From a virus (lineage: Duplodnaviria > Heunggongvirae > Uroviricota > Caudoviricetes): 20,962 nucleotides of DNA. This document shows, piece by piece, positions 860-7,891 of this stretch (the first letter of the stretch is position 1; each line of letters opens with the position of its first letter). The notes beneath the pieces are model-generated. The model saw only the letters and a program-made list of their open reading frames with translations. It searched no databases and had not been told where the DNA came from. The DNA lies in the IMG/VR virus record IMGVR_UViG_2671181136_000003. One strand, written 5' to 3'. The position numbers were made by a program, and so were the translations under genes.

Positions 860-991
860 ATGTCAGACAAACTCATAACGCTGGCGAAGATCCTCTGTGT
901 AATTGTCGGCATTTCATTTTCACTAATGCTGGTTGCTCTTTTTCTTTCCATGGCCTGGATGATGTTGTCTTCGTCGGGGCTGCTGGGGTGA
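860..991 (+). CDS. Hypothetical small membrane protein (43 aa, single predicted transmembrane helix)
   Basis: ATG at 860 preceded by a strong RBS GAAGGGAGGA (844-853). Almost entirely hydrophobic ([26 protein letters not shown]). Its TGA stop overlaps the GTG start of Rz (GTGA), suggesting translational coupling. Confidence 0.45.
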
Positions 992-1488
992 ACATAAACC
1001 GAATGCTTTCCGCGTTTATCGTTATTCTGCTGGTGGCCTGTGGTGCGCTGTGGATGGCAACAGACCATTACCGTGATAACGCGATTACCTACAAAGCGCA
1101 GCGCGATAACAAAGCCAGTGAACTGAAGCTGGCGAACGCAACCATTACTGATATGCAGGTGCGCCAGCGCGATGTTGCTGCGCTCGATGCAAAATACTCG
1201 AGGGAATTAGCCGATGCGAGAGCTGAAAATGAAACTCTTCGCGCTGACGTTGCCGCTGGTCGTAAGCGCCTGCGGATCAACGCCACCTGTCCAGGCTCCG
1301 TGCGTGAAGCCCCCACCACCTCCGGCGTGGATAATGCAACCGGCCCCCGACTGGCAGACACCGCTGAACGGGATTATTTCATCCTCAGAGAACGGTTGAT
1401 GACAATGCAGAAGCAGCTGGAAGGGGCGCAGGAATATATCCGCACTCAGTGCACTAAGCTGGCTTTTTATTATCCGGAGGATATATGA
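988..1488 (+). CDS. Rz: Rz i-spanin (inner-membrane spanin subunit)
   Basis: Translation closely matches the remembered lambda Rz sequence ([14 protein letters not shown]..., [37 protein letters not shown]). N-terminal TM segment. Start may be GTG at 988 or ATG at 1003. Confidence 0.9.
1214..1399 (+). CDS. Rz1: Rz1 o-spanin (outer-membrane lipoprotein), embedded in the +1 frame of Rz
   Basis: Completely nested inside Rz in another frame. Lipobox LVVSAC, proline-rich core [27 protein letters not shown], closely matching remembered lambda Rz1. Confidence 0.85.
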
Positions 1489-2747: not shown

Positions 2748-3113
2748 ATGGCTGAGCTTCGTACACTCCAGAGCAGAATCAAAACACTGAATACCCGACG
2801 GGTGAATATTCTGAAGGGTGAACAGCGTCGTGTCAGTGGCAGTGCACGTGTTTCCCTCAAGCGTCATATCTGGCTGAGGGATGCCGGACAGTGCTGTCTC
2901 TGTGGTCGTGTGGTTGACCTCTGTGACAGTGAACTCGATCACCGAATTGCACTTCAGTTCGGTGGTGGTAATGAGGAGACGAATCTCTGGACGCTCTGTA
3001 CCGAATGCCATCGCCAGAAGTCAGTCAGTGAAACGGCGAGTGGTATGCCGGACCCGACGCTGCCGGAGGTGTCCGGAGGTCATGGCAGGGCAGACGATAT
3101 CATCGGACTGTGA
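2748..3113 (+). CDS. HNH endonuclease (packaging-associated)
   Basis: Motifs CxxCG ... DHRIALQFGG ... N ... CxxCHxxK. Lies immediately upstream of the terminase genes, the position typical of HNH proteins that assist terminase in HK97-like cos phages. Confidence 0.85.
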   Translation: MAELRTLQSRIKTLNTRRVNILKGEQRRVSGSARVSLKRHIWLRDAGQCCLCGRVVDLCDSELDHRIALQFGGGNEETNLWTLCTECHRQKSVSETASGMPDPTLPEVSGGHGRADDIIGL

Positions 3114-3204
3114 CCCGCCCCGGGGGGGGATCATCCGGCGAAAAAAACGATCGCCCCGGACACCGCGCCCCCTCTCACGCAGAGAAAAAATTCCCGTTTC
3201 AGGG

Positions 3205-3331
3205 CAGTTAACATGTTAACTGGCTGCCCGGGCATTTTTGCGGTTTTTATCTTTATTATTCAGTTTGTTGTGCGGAAAAAATGTTAACAGGCTTTTTCAG
3301 CAAATGTTAACCAGGCAGCAGTTAACATTTG
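3205..3331. promoter_or_regulatory. Cluster of four GTTAAC-core motifs (candidate terminase recognition / cos-region or operator elements)
   Basis: Perfect 18-bp palindrome CAGTTAACATGTTAACTG (3205-3222); ATGTTAAC at 3281-3288; 11-bp inverted repeat CAAATGTTAAC (3301-3311) and GTTAACATTTG (3321-3331) separated by 9 bp. All lie in the 289-bp non-coding gap between HNH and terS. Confidence 0.45.
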
Positions 3332-3402
3332 CGGCATGAGACGCCGGGAAAAATGGGCTGAACCATACCCGGCTGAGTGCGTTCTGGACCCGGGAGGAGG
3401 CT

Positions 3403-3966
3403 GTGCTGACAACGCAAAAACGAAAATTTGCGCTGGCGCTCATGTCCGGGAAAAACAAAACAGCGTCAGCCATTGCCGCCGGTTATTCGGCGAAGACAGC
3501 CAGGGTTAAAGGCTCGCAGCTGGCAAAAGATCCGGAGGTGCTCGCGTTTATAGCCCGTAAACAGTGCGAGACGGTGGAGGTGGATGAGGTTCCTGTTTAC
3601 CGGCAGAAAAAATCAGAGCAGGAGGATAAACCCCGTCGCCGTGAGGCGGCTGCAATACCACAGCCGGACGAAAACAATCCGGAGATGCCACCGTCCGCGG
3701 TGATGTCTCCTGGTATTGAATATATGGAGGATGGTCTTCCCGATCCGGTGAAAGCCATGGGGCGGATCCTGGTGGAAAACCTCTGCATTGATCCGAAACT
3801 GGCACTGGATGCGGCCTGGCGTCTGGCGCAGTTCACGCACCATAAAAAAGGGGATGCCGGTAAAAAATCGGCAAAAGGTGATGCCGCGAAAAAAGCGGCT
3901 AACCGTTTTGCGGTGCCACCGCCACCCCGACTGGTGGTGAATAACGATAATGAGGGCAACGGATGA
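3403..3966 (+). CDS. Terminase small subunit
   Basis: GTG start with RBS GGGAGGAGG (3391-3399). N-terminal HTH-like segment (KTASAIAAGYSAKTARVKGSQL) typical of small terminases of the P27-type family. Stop overlaps the terL start (ATGA). Confidence 0.75.
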   Translation: MLTTQKRKFALALMSGKNKTASAIAAGYSAKTARVKGSQLAKDPEVLAFIARKQCETVEVDEVPVYRQKKSEQEDKPRRREAAAIPQPDENNPEMPPSAVMSPGIEYMEDGLPDPVKAMGRILVENLCIDPKLALDAAWRLAQFTHHKKGDAGKKSAKGDAAKKAANRFAVPPPPRLVVNNDNEGNG

Positions 3967-5624
3967 TACCTGTATGGAGCACAGCCTGCCCGGACTGGGC
4001 AGAGCGCCTGAAAAAGGGGCTGTCGATTATTCCGGCTCCGATTTATCCGGACCAGGCTGCACATGCACTGGCGATTTTTAAACAACTGCGGATTGTGGAT
4101 GCACCGGGTAGCCCGACGTTCGGGGAGTCCTGCGCACCGTGGGTGTTTGACCTGGTGGCGGCCCTGTTTGGCTCCTATGATGCGCAGACCGGTGTACGCC
4201 ATATCAAGGAAGTGTTTATCCTTATCCCCAAGAAAAACAGTAAGTCCACGCTGGCCGCGGGGATCATGATGACGGCGCTGTTACTGAACTGGCGGCAGGC
4301 GGCGGGCTACACCATTCTGGCCCCGACCGTGGAGGTGGCGGCTAACGCCTTCAACCCTGCCAGGGATATGGTACGACGGGACGATGATCTGGATGACCTC
4401 TGTCAGGTGCAGACACATATCCGGACCATCACCCATCGGGTGACGGACACCACCCTGAAGGTGGTGGCAGCCGATCCGAATACGGTGTCCGGTATCAAGT
4501 CCGTGGGGACACTGATTGATGAACTGTGGCTGTTTGGCAAGCAGTACAAAGCGGAAGACATGCTACGTGAAGCCATCGGCGGGCTTGCCTCCCGTCCGGA
4601 AGGATTTGTGGTGTACACAACCACCCAGTCGAATGAACCGCCTGCCGGGGTGTTCAGACAGAAACTGCAGTACGCCCGGGATGTCCGTGACGGCAAAATT
4701 CATGATCCGCACTTTCTGCCGGTGATATTTGAACACCCTCCTGAAATGGTGGAAAGCGGGGCTCACCTGCTGATGGAAAACCTCGCCATGGTCAATCCGA
4801 ATCTCGGTTATTCGGTGGATGAGGCTTTTCTGTACCGGGAGTACCGTAAAGCCCGGGAGGCTGGTGAGGAAGCATTTCGTGGCTTCATGTCAAAACACGC
4901 CAATGTGGAAATCGGTCTTGCCCTGCGTTCTGACCGCTGGGCGGGCGCGGATTTCTGGGAGCAGCAGGGCCGTTGTATCAGCCTGGACGATATCCTGCGT
5001 CGTGCTGATGTGGTGACGGTGGGGATTGACGGCGGAGGGCTGGATGATCTGCTGGGGATGTATGTGATTGGGCGTGACCGGGAGACCCGCGAATGGCTGG
5101 GCTGGGGCCATGCCTGGGCGCATGAAACCGCGGTGGTCCGACGGAAGAGCGAGGCGTCCCGGTTTCAGGATCTTGTTGCCTGTGGAGATATGACCATTGT
5201 CCGGCGTGTCGGGGATGACACGGCGGAAGTGGCGGAATATGTGCGTCGCATTCATGAGGCTGAGTTACTGGACCATATCGGTATTGACCCGTCAGGGGTG
5301 GGGCAGATTCTGGATTCACTGGCGGAAGCCGGGATCCCCGACGGAATTGTGGTGGGGATAAGCCAGGGCTGGAAACTGGGCGGGGCCATCAAAACCACCG
5401 AGCGCAAACTGGCTGAAGGGGTGCTGATTCACGGTGATCAGCCCCTGATGGCCTGGTGTGTCGGTAATGCCCGGGTGGAGCCTAAAGGTAACGCCATTCT
5501 TATCACCAAACAGGCCAGCGGACGGGGAAAAATTGACCCGCTGATGGCGCTCTTCAATGCGGTGTCCCTGATGTCCCTGAATCCGGAACCGAAAAAGAAA
5601 GCGTATGAGGTTTTTTTCATATAA
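3963..5624 (+). CDS. Terminase large subunit
   Basis: 553 aa. N-terminal ATPase region with a P-loop-like segment (ILIPKKNSKST), C-terminal nuclease-like region. Size and position after terS fit a phage large terminase. Confidence 0.9.
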   Translation: MIPVWSTACPDWAERLKKGLSIIPAPIYPDQAAHALAIFKQLRIVDAPGSPTFGESCAPWVFDLVAALFGSYDAQTGVRHIKEVFILIPKKNSKSTLAAGIMMTALLLNWRQAAGYTILAPTVEVAANAFNPARDMVRRDDDLDDLCQVQTHIRTITHRVTDTTLKVVAADPNTVSGIKSVGTLIDELWLFGKQYKAEDMLREAIGGLASRPEGFVVYTTTQSNEPPAGVFRQKLQYARDVRDGKIHDPHFLPVIFEHPPEMVESGAHLLMENLAMVNPNLGYSVDEAFLYREYRKAREAGEEAFRGFMSKHANVEIGLALRSDRWAGADFWEQQGRCISLDDILRRADVVTVGIDGGGLDDLLGMYVIGRDRETREWLGWGHAWAHETAVVRRKSEASRFQDLVACGDMTIVRRVGDDTAEVAEYVRRIHEAELLDHIGIDPSGVGQILDSLAEAGIPDGIVVGISQGWKLGGAIKTTERKLAEGVLIHGDQPLMAWCVGNARVEPKGNAILITKQASGRGKIDPLMALFNAVSLMSLNPEPKKKAYEVFFI

Positions 5625-5687: not shown

Positions 5688-7625
5688 GTGACTCTTAAAC
5701 GGGCCTGTTCCCTGCTGACGGTGAAATCCTTCAGTGAGGATGAACGGGTGATCACCGGGATTGCGTCAACGCCTTCTCCGGATCGGGATGGTGACATCCT
5801 GGAGCCGGAGGGGGCTGAGTTTGGCAGTACGATCCCGTTTCTCTGGCAGCATGACCATTCCCGCCCTGTAGGACAGTGTACGGTGCGTCGGGTCAGGGAA
5901 GGGCTGGAAATCACGGCAATGCTGGTGAAGCCGGAGCCGGGGATGCCCTCCCAGATGGCAGCCCGGCTGGATGAGGCCTGGGCTGCCATTAAGACCGGGC
6001 TGGTCAGGGGGCTTTCTGTGGGCTTCCGGCCCCATGAATACACTTATCTGGACGGAGGCGGACTGCATTTTCTGCGCTGGGATCTGATGGAGGTGTCTGC
6101 CGTCACCGTGCCCGCGAATGCGGAATGCACCATCCGGACCATTAAATATTTCGACCGCCCGTTTTCTGCCGCGTCCGGCAACCGGAAACCGGTGGTGAAA
6201 ATCGCATCTTCTGCCGGCGCTTCGGCACAGTCAATAACCTCTTTTCATAAGGAAAAGTCAGCAATGAATACTGGTGAACAGATTAAAAGTTTTGAAAACA
6301 AGCGTGCGGCGCTGGCAGCCTCCCTTGAGGAGATCATGAACAAAGCCGCAGAGGAAGGCCGCACACTGGATGTGGAAGAGGAAGAGCACTACGACAACAC
6401 CGCAGCGGAAATCCGTCAGGTGGATGCGCACCTGAAGCGTCTGCGTGAACTGGAAACCAGTAAGGCCGCCACGGCACAGCCGGTGAAACAGGCCGGTAAC
6501 GGGAATGTGGCCACGGTGGCTTCAGCGCCGGTGATCCGTGTTGAGCAGAAACTGGAGAAGGGGATTGGTTTCGCCCGCTTTGCCAAATCACTGGCCGCGG
6601 CTAAAGGTGTCCGCTCTGAAGCCCTGGAAGTGGCCCGTCGTCAGTATCCGGATGACAGCCGTCTGCATCATGTCCTGAAATCGGCGGTGGGGGCAGGGAC
6701 CACCACGGACCCGCAGTGGGCAGGCAGCCTGTCTGAATACCAGGAATATGCGCAGGACTTTATTGATTACCTGCGTCCGCAGACCATTATCGGGCGATTT
6801 GGTCAGGGCGGGATCCCTGCACTTCGTCAGGTGCCGTTCAATATCCGCGTGCATGCCCAGGTGTCCGGTGGTGCTGCCGGCTGGGTGGGTGAGGGTAAGG
6901 CCAGACCCCTGACGAAGTTTGATTTTGAATCCATCACCTTCAGTCATGCGAAAGTGTCGGCCATTGCGGTACTGACGGAAGAATTGATCCGTTTTTCCAG
7001 TCCGGCTGCTGATGCACTGGTCCGTAATGCGCTGGCGGAAGCGGTGGTGGCGCGTCTGGACACAGACTTTGTGGACCCGAAAAAAGCGGCGGTGGCGGAT
7101 GTCTCCCCGGCGTCCATCACCCATGATGTGAAGGGCACGGCATCAACCGGTAACCCGGATGCGGATGCCGAGGCCGCGTTTGGCCAGTTTGTGACGGCAA
7201 ATCTGCAGCCCACCGGTGCGGTCTGGCTGATGTCCAGCACCAATGCCCTGGCGCTCTCCATGCGTAAAAATGCGCTGGGGCAGAAGGAATATCCGGACAT
7301 GACCTTGCTGGGCGGGACCTTCCAGGGGCTGCCGGTGATTGTCTCCCAGTATGTGGGTGACCAGCTGGTACTGGTGAATGCACCGGATATTTATCTGGCT
7401 GATGACGGCGGTGTGGCGGTGGATATGTCCCGTGAAGCGTCACTGGAGATGCAGTCTGAACCGACCAGCGACAGCAGCACACCGTCACCGGTGGAACTGG
7501 TCTCCATGTTTCAGACCGGCAGCGTGGCCATCCGTGCGGAGCGCTGGATCAACTGGCGTCGTCGCCGTACCGCGGCAGTGGCGGTGATCACCGGTGTGAA
7601 CTACGGAACTGCGTCCGGTGGCTGA
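5688..7625 (+). CDS. Fused prohead protease (HK97 family) - major capsid protein (HK97 fold)
   Basis: GTG start with RBS CAGGAGG. The N-terminal ~170 aa carry prohead-protease-like motifs (PFLWQHD, GLSVGF, EVSAVTVPAN). A coiled-coil delta-domain-like stretch follows (ENKRAALAASLEEIMNKAAEEGRTLDVEEEEHY), then a ~400-aa capsid-like region. Confidence 0.8.
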   Translation: MTLKRACSLLTVKSFSEDERVITGIASTPSPDRDGDILEPEGAEFGSTIPFLWQHDHSRPVGQCTVRRVREGLEITAMLVKPEPGMPSQMAARLDEAWAAIKTGLVRGLSVGFRPHEYTYLDGGGLHFLRWDLMEVSAVTVPANAECTIRTIKYFDRPFSAASGNRKPVVKIASSAGASAQSITSFHKEKSAMNTGEQIKSFENKRAALAASLEEIMNKAAEEGRTLDVEEEEHYDNTAAEIRQVDAHLKRLRELETSKAATAQPVKQAGNGNVATVASAPVIRVEQKLEKGIGFARFAKSLAAAKGVRSEALEVARRQYPDDSRLHHVLKSAVGAGTTTDPQWAGSLSEYQEYAQDFIDYLRPQTIIGRFGQGGIPALRQVPFNIRVHAQVSGGAAGWVGEGKARPLTKFDFESITFSHAKVSAIAVLTEELIRFSSPAADALVRNALAEAVVARLDTDFVDPKKAAVADVSPASITHDVKGTASTGNPDADAEAAFGQFVTANLQPTGAVWLMSSTNALALSMRKNALGQKEYPDMTLLGGTFQGLPVIVSQYVGDQLVLVNAPDIYLADDGGVAVDMSREASLEMQSEPTSDSSTPSPVELVSMFQTGSVAIRAERWINWRRRRTAAVAVITGVNYGTASGG

Positions 7626-7669: not shown

Positions 7670-7891
7670 ATGGCAAAAATCCAGTATCTGCAGGGCACGC
7701 ATGATGCCCGGGCCGGGGATATCCGTGATGTGGCACAGCCGTGTGCGGAGGTGCTGGTTCGCCTGGGGAAGGCGGAGTACATCACAGCGCGACGTCCGGC
7801 AGGTCAGAAAAAGAAACGTGATGCGGAGCATGGCGAATGTGGAACCTTTTGCGGCGAACCCGAAAAAACCAGAAATCAGGACGTGACGTAA
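7670..7891 (+). CDS. Hypothetical small ORF (73 aa) between capsid and portal genes; may not be a real gene
   Basis: Listed only in the ORF track; weak RBS; overlaps the portal start by 55 nt; no family recognised. Confidence 0.2.
   Translation: MAKIQYLQGTHDARAGDIRDVAQPCAEVLVRLGKAEYITARRPAGQKKKRDAEHGECGTFCGEPEKTRNQDVT

Follow-up and report, generated by a model that had tools for sequence, protein, structure and literature searches.

A probable HK97-type cos site with a cosB-like array of candidate small-terminase-binding sites between the HNH and terS genes of a Stx-type lambdoid prophage

The stretch of DNA analysed here, referred to below as the window (20,962 bp), is a segment of the late genes of a long-tailed lambdoid prophage of the Stx type and contains an HNH-terS-terL module (Table 1). 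The HNH gene, which is labelled as HNH endonuclease or DNase in related phage records, ends at 3113, and terS starts with a GTG codon at 3403; the gap between the two genes is therefore 289 bp long (3114-3402). It is non-coding, as an earlier note on this DNA had stated, and stands in the HK97-type layout that the note had also recognised, directly downstream of the HNH gene and directly upstream of terS-terL. The small terminase (TerS) weakly matches the DNA-binding domains of SF6/SPP1-type TerS proteins (2cmp and 4zc3), and the large terminase (TerL) is a distant homologue of cos-phage TerL proteins such as that of SfI, with 22-24% identity to those of HK97-like phages such as SfI. Further downstream, a single 645-aa ORF located ahead of the portal gene combines the prohead protease (Peptidase_S78) with the major capsid protein as a fusion, an order that is unusual among HK97-like head modules; fused protease-coat genes have been mentioned for Gifsy-2-like heads (PMC12315714). 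Between the lysis genes and the HNH gene, a 113-aa ORF (2033-2374) encodes a TonB C-terminal domain (PF03544, E = 6e-15). Runs of N, representing masked or unresolved bases, occupy positions 18251-18273 and 20091-20111, among the overlapping and repeated ORFs of a tail-fibre-like region.

The 1.3 kb around the gap share 94-97% identity with 94 phage records, and the 401 bp centred on it (3060-3460) share 96-99% identity with nearly all of the same records. These relatives are long-tailed Stx1a/Stx2a/Stx2c converting phages, including BP-4795, 2851, 1717, YYZ-2008 and phi330 (genus Pankowvirus), and the carriers of the HNH-cos-terS module include Stx1, Stx2a and Stx2c phages. Of 5426 complete E. 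coli genomes, 1277 contain the gap sequence, at 3000 places, with up to seven copies per genome and six copies on plasmids; the RefSeq annotation of those genomes contains no feature over it.

Table 1. Features of the window. Positions from +1 are counted from the predicted left end of the packaged DNA (3174).
Feature	Position	From +1	Strand	Basis
Rz	988-1488			Pfam scan
HNH endonuclease gene, packaging accessory nuclease of HK97-type cos systems	2748-3113		+	Pfam PF01844, E = 2e-6
G8-ATCA element, conserved upstream cos sub-site	3122-3133	-52 to -41	+	Comparison of representative loci
Conserved cos core, ATCGCCCCGGACACCGCGCCCCCT/CTCACGCAGAGAAAAAATTCCC (slash, nick), A-tract at +12 to +17	3150-3195		+	Alignment across relatives
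cosN, predicted 10-nt 3' cohesive end CGCGCCCCCT	3164-3173		+	Homology to Lys8385Vzw CGCCCCCCCT, one substitution
Site 1, 18-bp palindrome of two back-to-back half-sites (GTTAACAT / ATGTTAAC)	3205-3222	+32 to +49	.	Inverted-repeat search
T-tract-rich spacer separating site 1 from the downstream sites, with a predicted intrinsic bend	3235-3270		+	Wedge-model curvature
Site 2, solitary half-site AAATGTTAAC	3279-3288	+106 to +115	+	
Site 3, inverted pair GCAAATGTTAAC-N9-GTTAACATTTGC	3300-3332	+127 to +159	.	
terS, small terminase (Terminase_2) with N-terminal helix-turn-helix	3403-3966	+230 (start)	+	PF03592, E = 1.3e-8, residues 2-57
terL, large terminase (ATPase and nuclease)	3963-5624		+	PF03354 and PF20441
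Protease-capsid fusion	5688-7625			Pfam scan
Portal	7837-9201			Pfam scan

The gap contains five GTTAAC hexamers, starting at 3207, 3215, 3283, 3306 and 3321 and all lying within 3207-3328, rather than the four copies counted previously, and every one of them extends to the 8-mer ATGTTAAC/GTTAACAT. The first two constitute the perfect 18-bp palindrome already described at this position, CAGTTAACATGTTAACTG. The third is a solitary half-site that had been overlooked, while the last two form an inverted pair, for which the reported 9-bp spacer was correct but the reported arm length of 11 bp was not, the arms being 12 nt long (3300-3311 and 3321-3332). The 8-mer ATGTTAAC occurs five times in the window, always inside the same 122 bp, against a chance expectation of 0.35, and none of 100 shuffles reached five copies. 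The hexamer GTTAAC is found eight times in the window (2.35 expected), five of the eight in the cluster. The GTTAAC cluster is real and non-random. The possibility that GTTAAC is relevant here as an HpaI-type restriction target was also considered and set aside; outside the cluster the hexamer is neither avoided nor enriched (three sites, compared with about 2.35 expected for the whole window).

Site 1 is parted from the downstream sites by the T-tract-rich spacer, in which the wedge-model curvature peaks at 3239 (41 degrees), the second highest value in the 21-kb window and above the 99th percentile; a further peak above the 99th percentile lies at about 3182, in the A-tract just past the nick described below. 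These curvature values are indicative only. The related loci L085, L089 and L092 have T-tract spacers as well. A search of 3114-3402 for the IHF consensus WATCAANNNNTTR, allowing up to one mismatch, gave no match, and elsewhere in the window the consensus was matched nine times, with 9.29 matches expected by chance.

A palindrome followed by T-runs, at 3235-3239 and 3244-3248, could be taken for an intrinsic terminator or another RNA structure that ends or attenuates transcription of the HNH gene, an alternative that had been raised before. We regard this as very improbable. The first T-run begins 12 nt past the palindrome, not 9 nt as had been reported, and the stem is AT-rich and has no loop, instead of the GC-rich stem-loop with an immediate U-run typical of such terminators. 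No terminator-like site was detected on the plus strand between 2700 and 3700, and the Rfam search over the gap returned no family, its lone match being a spurious miRNA at 19 bits against a threshold of 70. A terminator would also leave the other three copies of the motif unexplained, and it would be harmful in the short-gap relatives considered below, where the palindrome spans the terS start codon.

The position of the cut can be derived from a near-identical phage. The Stx1 phage Lys8385Vzw was induced and its virion DNA was sequenced, and PhageTerm assigned it to the cos class with cohesive ends of the 3' type, 10 nt long, and CGCCCCCCCT as its cos sequence at the genome end (Zhang et al. 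2021, PMC7946995). In its record (MT225100), which contains the same module as the window, both ends were read: the sequence finishes with ...GGACACCGCCCCCCCT and restarts with CTCACGCAGAGAAAAAATTCCCGTTTCAGGGCAGTTAACATGTTAAC; the ends were also read as ...GATCGCTCCGGACACCGCCCCCCCT on the right and CTCACGCAGAGAAAAAATTCCCGTTTCAGGGCAGTTAACATGTTAACTGG... on the left. The ends mapped in this relative by one PhageTerm analysis were transferred to the window by alignment, which places the equivalent of the cut at 3173/3174 and the left end of the packaged DNA at 3174 (+1). Since the ends of Lys8385Vzw align to 3164-3173, the earlier proposal of a cos site in the interval 3114-3402 holds as far as the interval is concerned; however, instead of coinciding with the GTTAAC palindromes, the cut is located 31 bp upstream, in a GC-rich core that had not been singled out.

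In Salmonella phage FSL SP-016, this non-coding core is about 80% identical to that of the window and represents the sole part of the 401-bp query that aligned at the DNA level, the flanking coding DNA being unaligned. Across loci, the pattern GGGGGGG..(~35 nt)..GGACACCGCNCCCCNNCTCA.....AGAAAAAAT is nearly invariant. Its carriers are E. coli Stx-type phages, phage FSL SP-016, three E. coli satellites resembling phage-inducible chromosomal islands (PICIs; L090-L092), and prophages of Enterobacter, Klebsiella, Kosakonia, Citrobacter, Buttiauxella, Atlantibacter and Entomohabitans. In 16 representative loci, satellites among them, the G-run shows no variation, its length differing among the E. 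coli copies, and the G8-ATCA element is possibly cosQ-like. In the PPompW prophages of O157-type strains (LC567818, LC567822 and others), ISEc20, an element of the IS110 family, interrupts the G/C run about 50 bp upstream of the cos nick (window ~3125), so that the cut-site core is parted from the HNH gene and the G-run. A literature search with the core sequence as a string returned a single match, an unrelated human-genetics paper, and nothing on this cos type was found in a paper on Chi hotspots of lambdoid phages or in a preprint on cf-PICIs.

Related loci were collected through TerS homologues in the protein database together with their contigs, and by pattern scans of GTDB genomes and IMG/VR. 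The core pattern used for GTDB was too loose, so that most of its 120 matches were chance occurrences in high-GC genomes and nine Enterobacterales loci were real; the combined sample comprises about 218 loci with the cos core. In all of these, the first half-site pair is located at +33/+34 and +41/+42, with terS starting at +40, +74 or +230. The comparison with relatives that the earlier note had proposed thus gave a positive result: in phages and satellites alike, the half-sites are conserved in position relative to the nick and co-vary with the DNA-binding domain of TerS.

Short-gap phages have an HNH-terS gap of only about 106 bp, and their pair reads GTAAAC-AT-GTTAAC, its ATG being the start codon of terS (ATG TTA ACA, Met-Leu-Thr). 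Accordingly placed starts are found in SP-016, Enterobacter and Klebsiella, where terS begins with ATGTTAACA at site 1, the equivalent ATG of the window being at 3213. The window lineage retains ATGTTAAC at +40 without starting terS there, and its terS begins at +230 with GTG CTG ACA. The upstream terS starts of some annotations (202 aa, e.g. in Lys8385Vzw and P0001) were rejected because the N-terminus MLT[TA]QKRK is conserved across all lineages. A 24-aa hydrophobic ORF (3213-3287, MLTGCPGIFAVFIFIIQFVVRKKC) begins at the ancestral terS ATG. Its equivalent retains 24 aa in L089 and has only 14 aa in L085; because of this shortening, and because the hydrophobicity follows from the T-tracts, the idea of a small membrane peptide was set aside, and the ORF is probably not a gene but a side effect of the T-tracts.

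The two half-sites of the inverted pair keep a 15-bp offset, at +133/+148 in the window and +132/+147 in L085, and in most of the short-gap relatives examined the pair, at +247/+262, is part of the terS coding sequence and specifies a conserved NVYTPAVN peptide (ATGTTTAYACCCCAGCRGTAAACA) in the otherwise hypervariable TerS linker (L002:1840-1870; equivalents in L093, L112, L120, L146 and L153). The occurrence of half-sites inside a hypervariable linker points to constraint at the DNA level; the embedded half-sites are a cis-acting DNA signal that shapes the protein sequence. The solitary site 2 lies at the same position in L085 and L089, with a lineage-specific motif. An extra half-site is present about 35 bp upstream of the nick in short-gap relatives, as GTAAAC (L002, L093, L112, L120, L146 and L175) or GTCAAC (L134, L198 and L114), and it also varies with the type of TerS; the window has GAAAAAAAC instead at 3139-3148, and this site appears to be degenerate in the window lineage.

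The relationship between site 1 and the start of terS could also mean that the repeats are functionless debris, namely duplicates derived from the former start of terS (ATG TTA ACx, Met-Leu-Thr) and from part of its linker, left stranded in the gap by a rearrangement of about 190 bp that moved the start from +40 to +230. The site 1 start codon of the SP-016, Enterobacter and Klebsiella prophages and the location of their inverted pair inside terS would agree with such a history, as would the start of terS in the window, GTGCTGACA, which is a diverged copy of ATGTTAACA. We nevertheless consider this explanation unlikely. Debris should decay, whereas in 79 loci of the E. coli group the five sites, together with the spacer, are nearly invariant, in a region where the 3' end of the HNH gene and the lengths of the G/C runs vary. 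Moreover, the exact positions relative to the nick have been retained, and the embedded copies constrain a linker that is otherwise hypervariable; all five sites have been re-specified together in L085, and satellites carry an analogous array with a different motif.

The last two points belong to a wider pattern, in which the sequence of the half-sites follows that of the predicted recognition helix of the TerS helix-turn-helix (approximately residues 29-39), KTAR accompanying GTTAAC and KSAR accompanying GTTTAC/T. Among the long-gap loci, about 150 combine the helix S-A-K-T-A-R-V/I with GTTAAC, and two (L085) combine S-E-K-S-A-R-C-K with GTTTAT/GTTTAC at all five positions. Among the short-gap loci, S-E-K-T-A-R-S-Q is associated with GTTAAC-GT-GTTAAC (about 12 loci) and S-E-K-S-A-R-S-K with a left half-site GTAAAC/ATAAAC and an inverted pair GTTTAY...GTAAAC (about 45 loci). 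Seven satellite loci with the helix [EG]-K-T-A-R-V-K-G-W carry GTTACAC. The switch between Thr and Ser therefore coincides with the switch between GTTAAC and GTTTAC once in each architecture, short-gap and long-gap. The most telling case is L085, where the five half-sites have changed together while the layout of the window, with its palindrome, solitary site and spaced inverted pair, has been kept. Such co-variation is difficult to explain by sequence debris or by the binding of a host factor. It is suggestive rather than conclusive, because the independent events are few (about 2-4 lineage switches), and it could partly reflect the co-inheritance of adjacent DNA. In one counter-case, the right half of site 1 remains GTTAAC in short-gap phages despite their KSAR helix, possibly because it encodes Met-Leu-Thr.

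The satellites L090, L091 and L092 from E. coli have PICI hallmarks (alpA, or a replication gene of the AAA_25 or D5_N/primase type) and a TerS homologue, and L090 and L091 also have a capsid-like gene; no HNH gene or terL was called in the fetched flanks of the three loci. Each of them (L090:1873-2489, L091:1873-2489 and L092:1638-2474) contains a cos cut-site core of the window type followed by GTTACAC repeats in place of GTTAAC. Additional GTTACA copies occur in the TerS linker of L090 and L091, where they are read as Lys-Val-Thr repeats (AAAGTTACA; L090:2230-2310), and the linker of L092 has the same VT/KVT peptide repeats. Compared with the TerS of the window, the satellite proteins are 52-60% identical in the N-terminal DNA-binding part and 58-64% identical in the C-terminal part, while SP-016 TerS shows the reverse pattern (74% and 43%, respectively). 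This is what would be expected if the TerL and HNH proteins of a helper phage read the cut-site core and the adjacent TerS reads the repeats. TerS-encoding E. coli PICIs for which no helper phage had been found were noted by Fillol-Salom et al. (2018, PMC6092414); since the satellites share the cos core, and their TerS C-terminus is nearer to that of the window than that of SP-016 is, Stx phages of the window type are candidate helpers for them.

The satellites also bear on the remaining alternative, that the repeats bind a protein other than TerS, such as the HNH protein, a regulator encoded by the phage or one of the host's nucleoid proteins, and serve as an operator or an architectural element, for example in the control of the late operon or of terS. 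Regulation could be allowed by the overlap of site 1 with the ribosome-binding site and start codon of terS in short-gap relatives, and a weak promoter-like match is found on the minus strand at 3310-3281. On balance this is improbable. The motif tracks the helix-turn-helix type of the adjacent TerS, and a site for a host factor should not alternate between GTTAAC, GTTTAC and GTTACAC within one host species; the lack of an IHF consensus site in the gap likewise speaks against it. In the satellite loci fetched, the only nearby packaging or regulatory genes to be called are terS, the capsid-like gene and alpA, without an HNH gene. The operator for an unrelated regulator, suggested in the earlier note as an alternative, is made less likely by the matching repeat array found in satellites that retain nothing but the cos core and their own terS.

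The gap is thus probably an HK97-type, HNH-assisted cos site with 3' overhangs, equipped with a cosB-like array of candidate TerS-binding sites, and the small terminase most likely binds at the GTTAAC repeats that follow shortly downstream of the cut. We infer both the identity of TerS as the binding protein and the geometry of the complex. In the proposed mechanism, TerL, aided by the HNH protein, would make staggered nicks flanking 3164-3173, leaving the cohesive end, and packaging would run rightwards from 3174. The five (A)ATGTTAAC half-sites at the first-packaged end, from +32 to +159, would act as the recognition module, in the order back-to-back palindrome, T-tract bend, solitary site and inverted pair. 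The N-terminal helix-turn-helix domains of an oligomeric TerS would bind the half-sites and thereby wrap or bend the DNA, placing TerL and the HNH protein on the conserved cut-site core. The resulting complex would start packaging and would probably also stop and cut at the end of each genome. A cos site at this place is expected biology, unusually well resolved here, and the element itself is uncharacterised, although the kind of element is already known. Several features go beyond the routine: the architecture is locked in position, the sites have been re-specified in concert and are embedded in the coding sequence of terS, and satellites have the cut site in common with the phage but a different address.

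The cut-site architecture of the window is homologous to HK97 cos, and the function of the array resembles that of lambda cosB and SPP1 pacL/pacR. In the HK97 record, the HNH gene is located at the right end (...GGGGGGGGGATCAAATCTTCAAAACCTTTGCCCCAAATGACCGCCGCCAAA) and terS 49 bp from the left end (GTTTGAATTT...). The 10-nt 3' overhang of HK97 is made with the help of the HNH protein gp74, and its TerS binds a 15-bp site at +15 to +29, downstream of the nick (PMC11331095), which makes a TerS element between the nick and terS the arrangement to be expected. The gene order HNH-cos-terS-terL and a GC-rich 10-nt 3' overhang are common to both systems, as would be TerS recognition downstream of the nick. 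Both also have a G-run followed by ATCA, HK97 in the form of G9-ATCA at -51 to -39. After the G-run, the window continues with an A-rich stretch, GCCCC and then GACACCGCGCCCCCT up to the nick, and GCCCC...GAC(A)CCGC... precedes the nick in both, a similarity too weak for BLAST and seen by direct alignment only. However, the two TerL proteins are distant, and HK97 TerS belongs to another family, which threads DNA through its channel and uses the single 15-bp site, in contrast to five helix-turn-helix-type half-sites over 128 bp in the window.

The lambda cos site is composed of cosQ, cosN and cosB, the latter with the elements R3-I1-R2-R1 bound by gpNu1. The window is similar in having repeated candidate TerS sites between the nick and terS, at the first-packaged end, over a span of about 130 bp with a bend in the middle; given that the gap has no IHF consensus site, this bend would be intrinsic, unlike that at I1 of lambda. 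In lambda compared with phages 21 and N15, the specificity types of cosB co-vary between TerS and array, and the same kind of co-variation is seen here. The differences are that the window has a 3' overhang of 10 nt where lambda has a 5' overhang of 12 nt, that it has an HNH partner nuclease, that its TerS is of the Terminase_2 type and not Nu1-like, and that the half-site sequence is unrelated to the R sites. The resemblance to lambda cosB is functional and not by descent.

With the pac site of SPP1/SF6, where G1P acts on the pacL and pacR boxes, the window shares the TerS family (PF03592) with its N-terminal helix-turn-helix. The SPP1 pac cut site is flanked by several short boxes in repeated copies and by DNA with an intrinsic bend. 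By analogy, the recognition sites of the present family may flank the cut on both sides, because short-gap relatives also have a half-site at about -35. SPP1 differs in packaging by the headful mechanism from one imprecise cut, as opposed to the precise cohesive ends and HNH-type cos of the window. The satellites, rather than the window itself, recall the TerS swaps of SaPIs and other PICIs, in which the TerS of a satellite recognises that satellite's packaging site: L090-L092 have their own TerS homologue beside the cos core of the window phage family, with a different repeat motif, although in a cos rather than a pac system.

It is conceivable, if tentative, that the array represents a re-programmable packaging address, in which a change in the TerS helix (Thr or Ser at residue 32 and neighbouring residues) together with a concerted change of the half-sites gives rise to mutually exclusive specificities on a shared cut-site core, and that TerS-encoding PICIs exploit it. 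If so, the co-resident lambdoid prophages of one E. coli genome, where up to seven copies of the gap occur, would be sorted into separate packaging groups. The PICIs would use the address by keeping the cut-site core of the helper and a TerL-compatible TerS C-terminus and employing GTTACAC, and the widespread Stx-phage module would be the long-missing helper type for these islands. The naturally varied pairs of TerS and half-sites provide material for studying how DNA is read by TerS of the Terminase_2 type, a family different from that of the HK97 TerS:DNA structure (PMC11331095). The cos region also gives a minimal cis element for transducible cos plasmids. The nick and the likely specificity determinants would tell which prophages and satellites are open to co-packaging and hence in what way Shiga-toxin genes and islands are spread.
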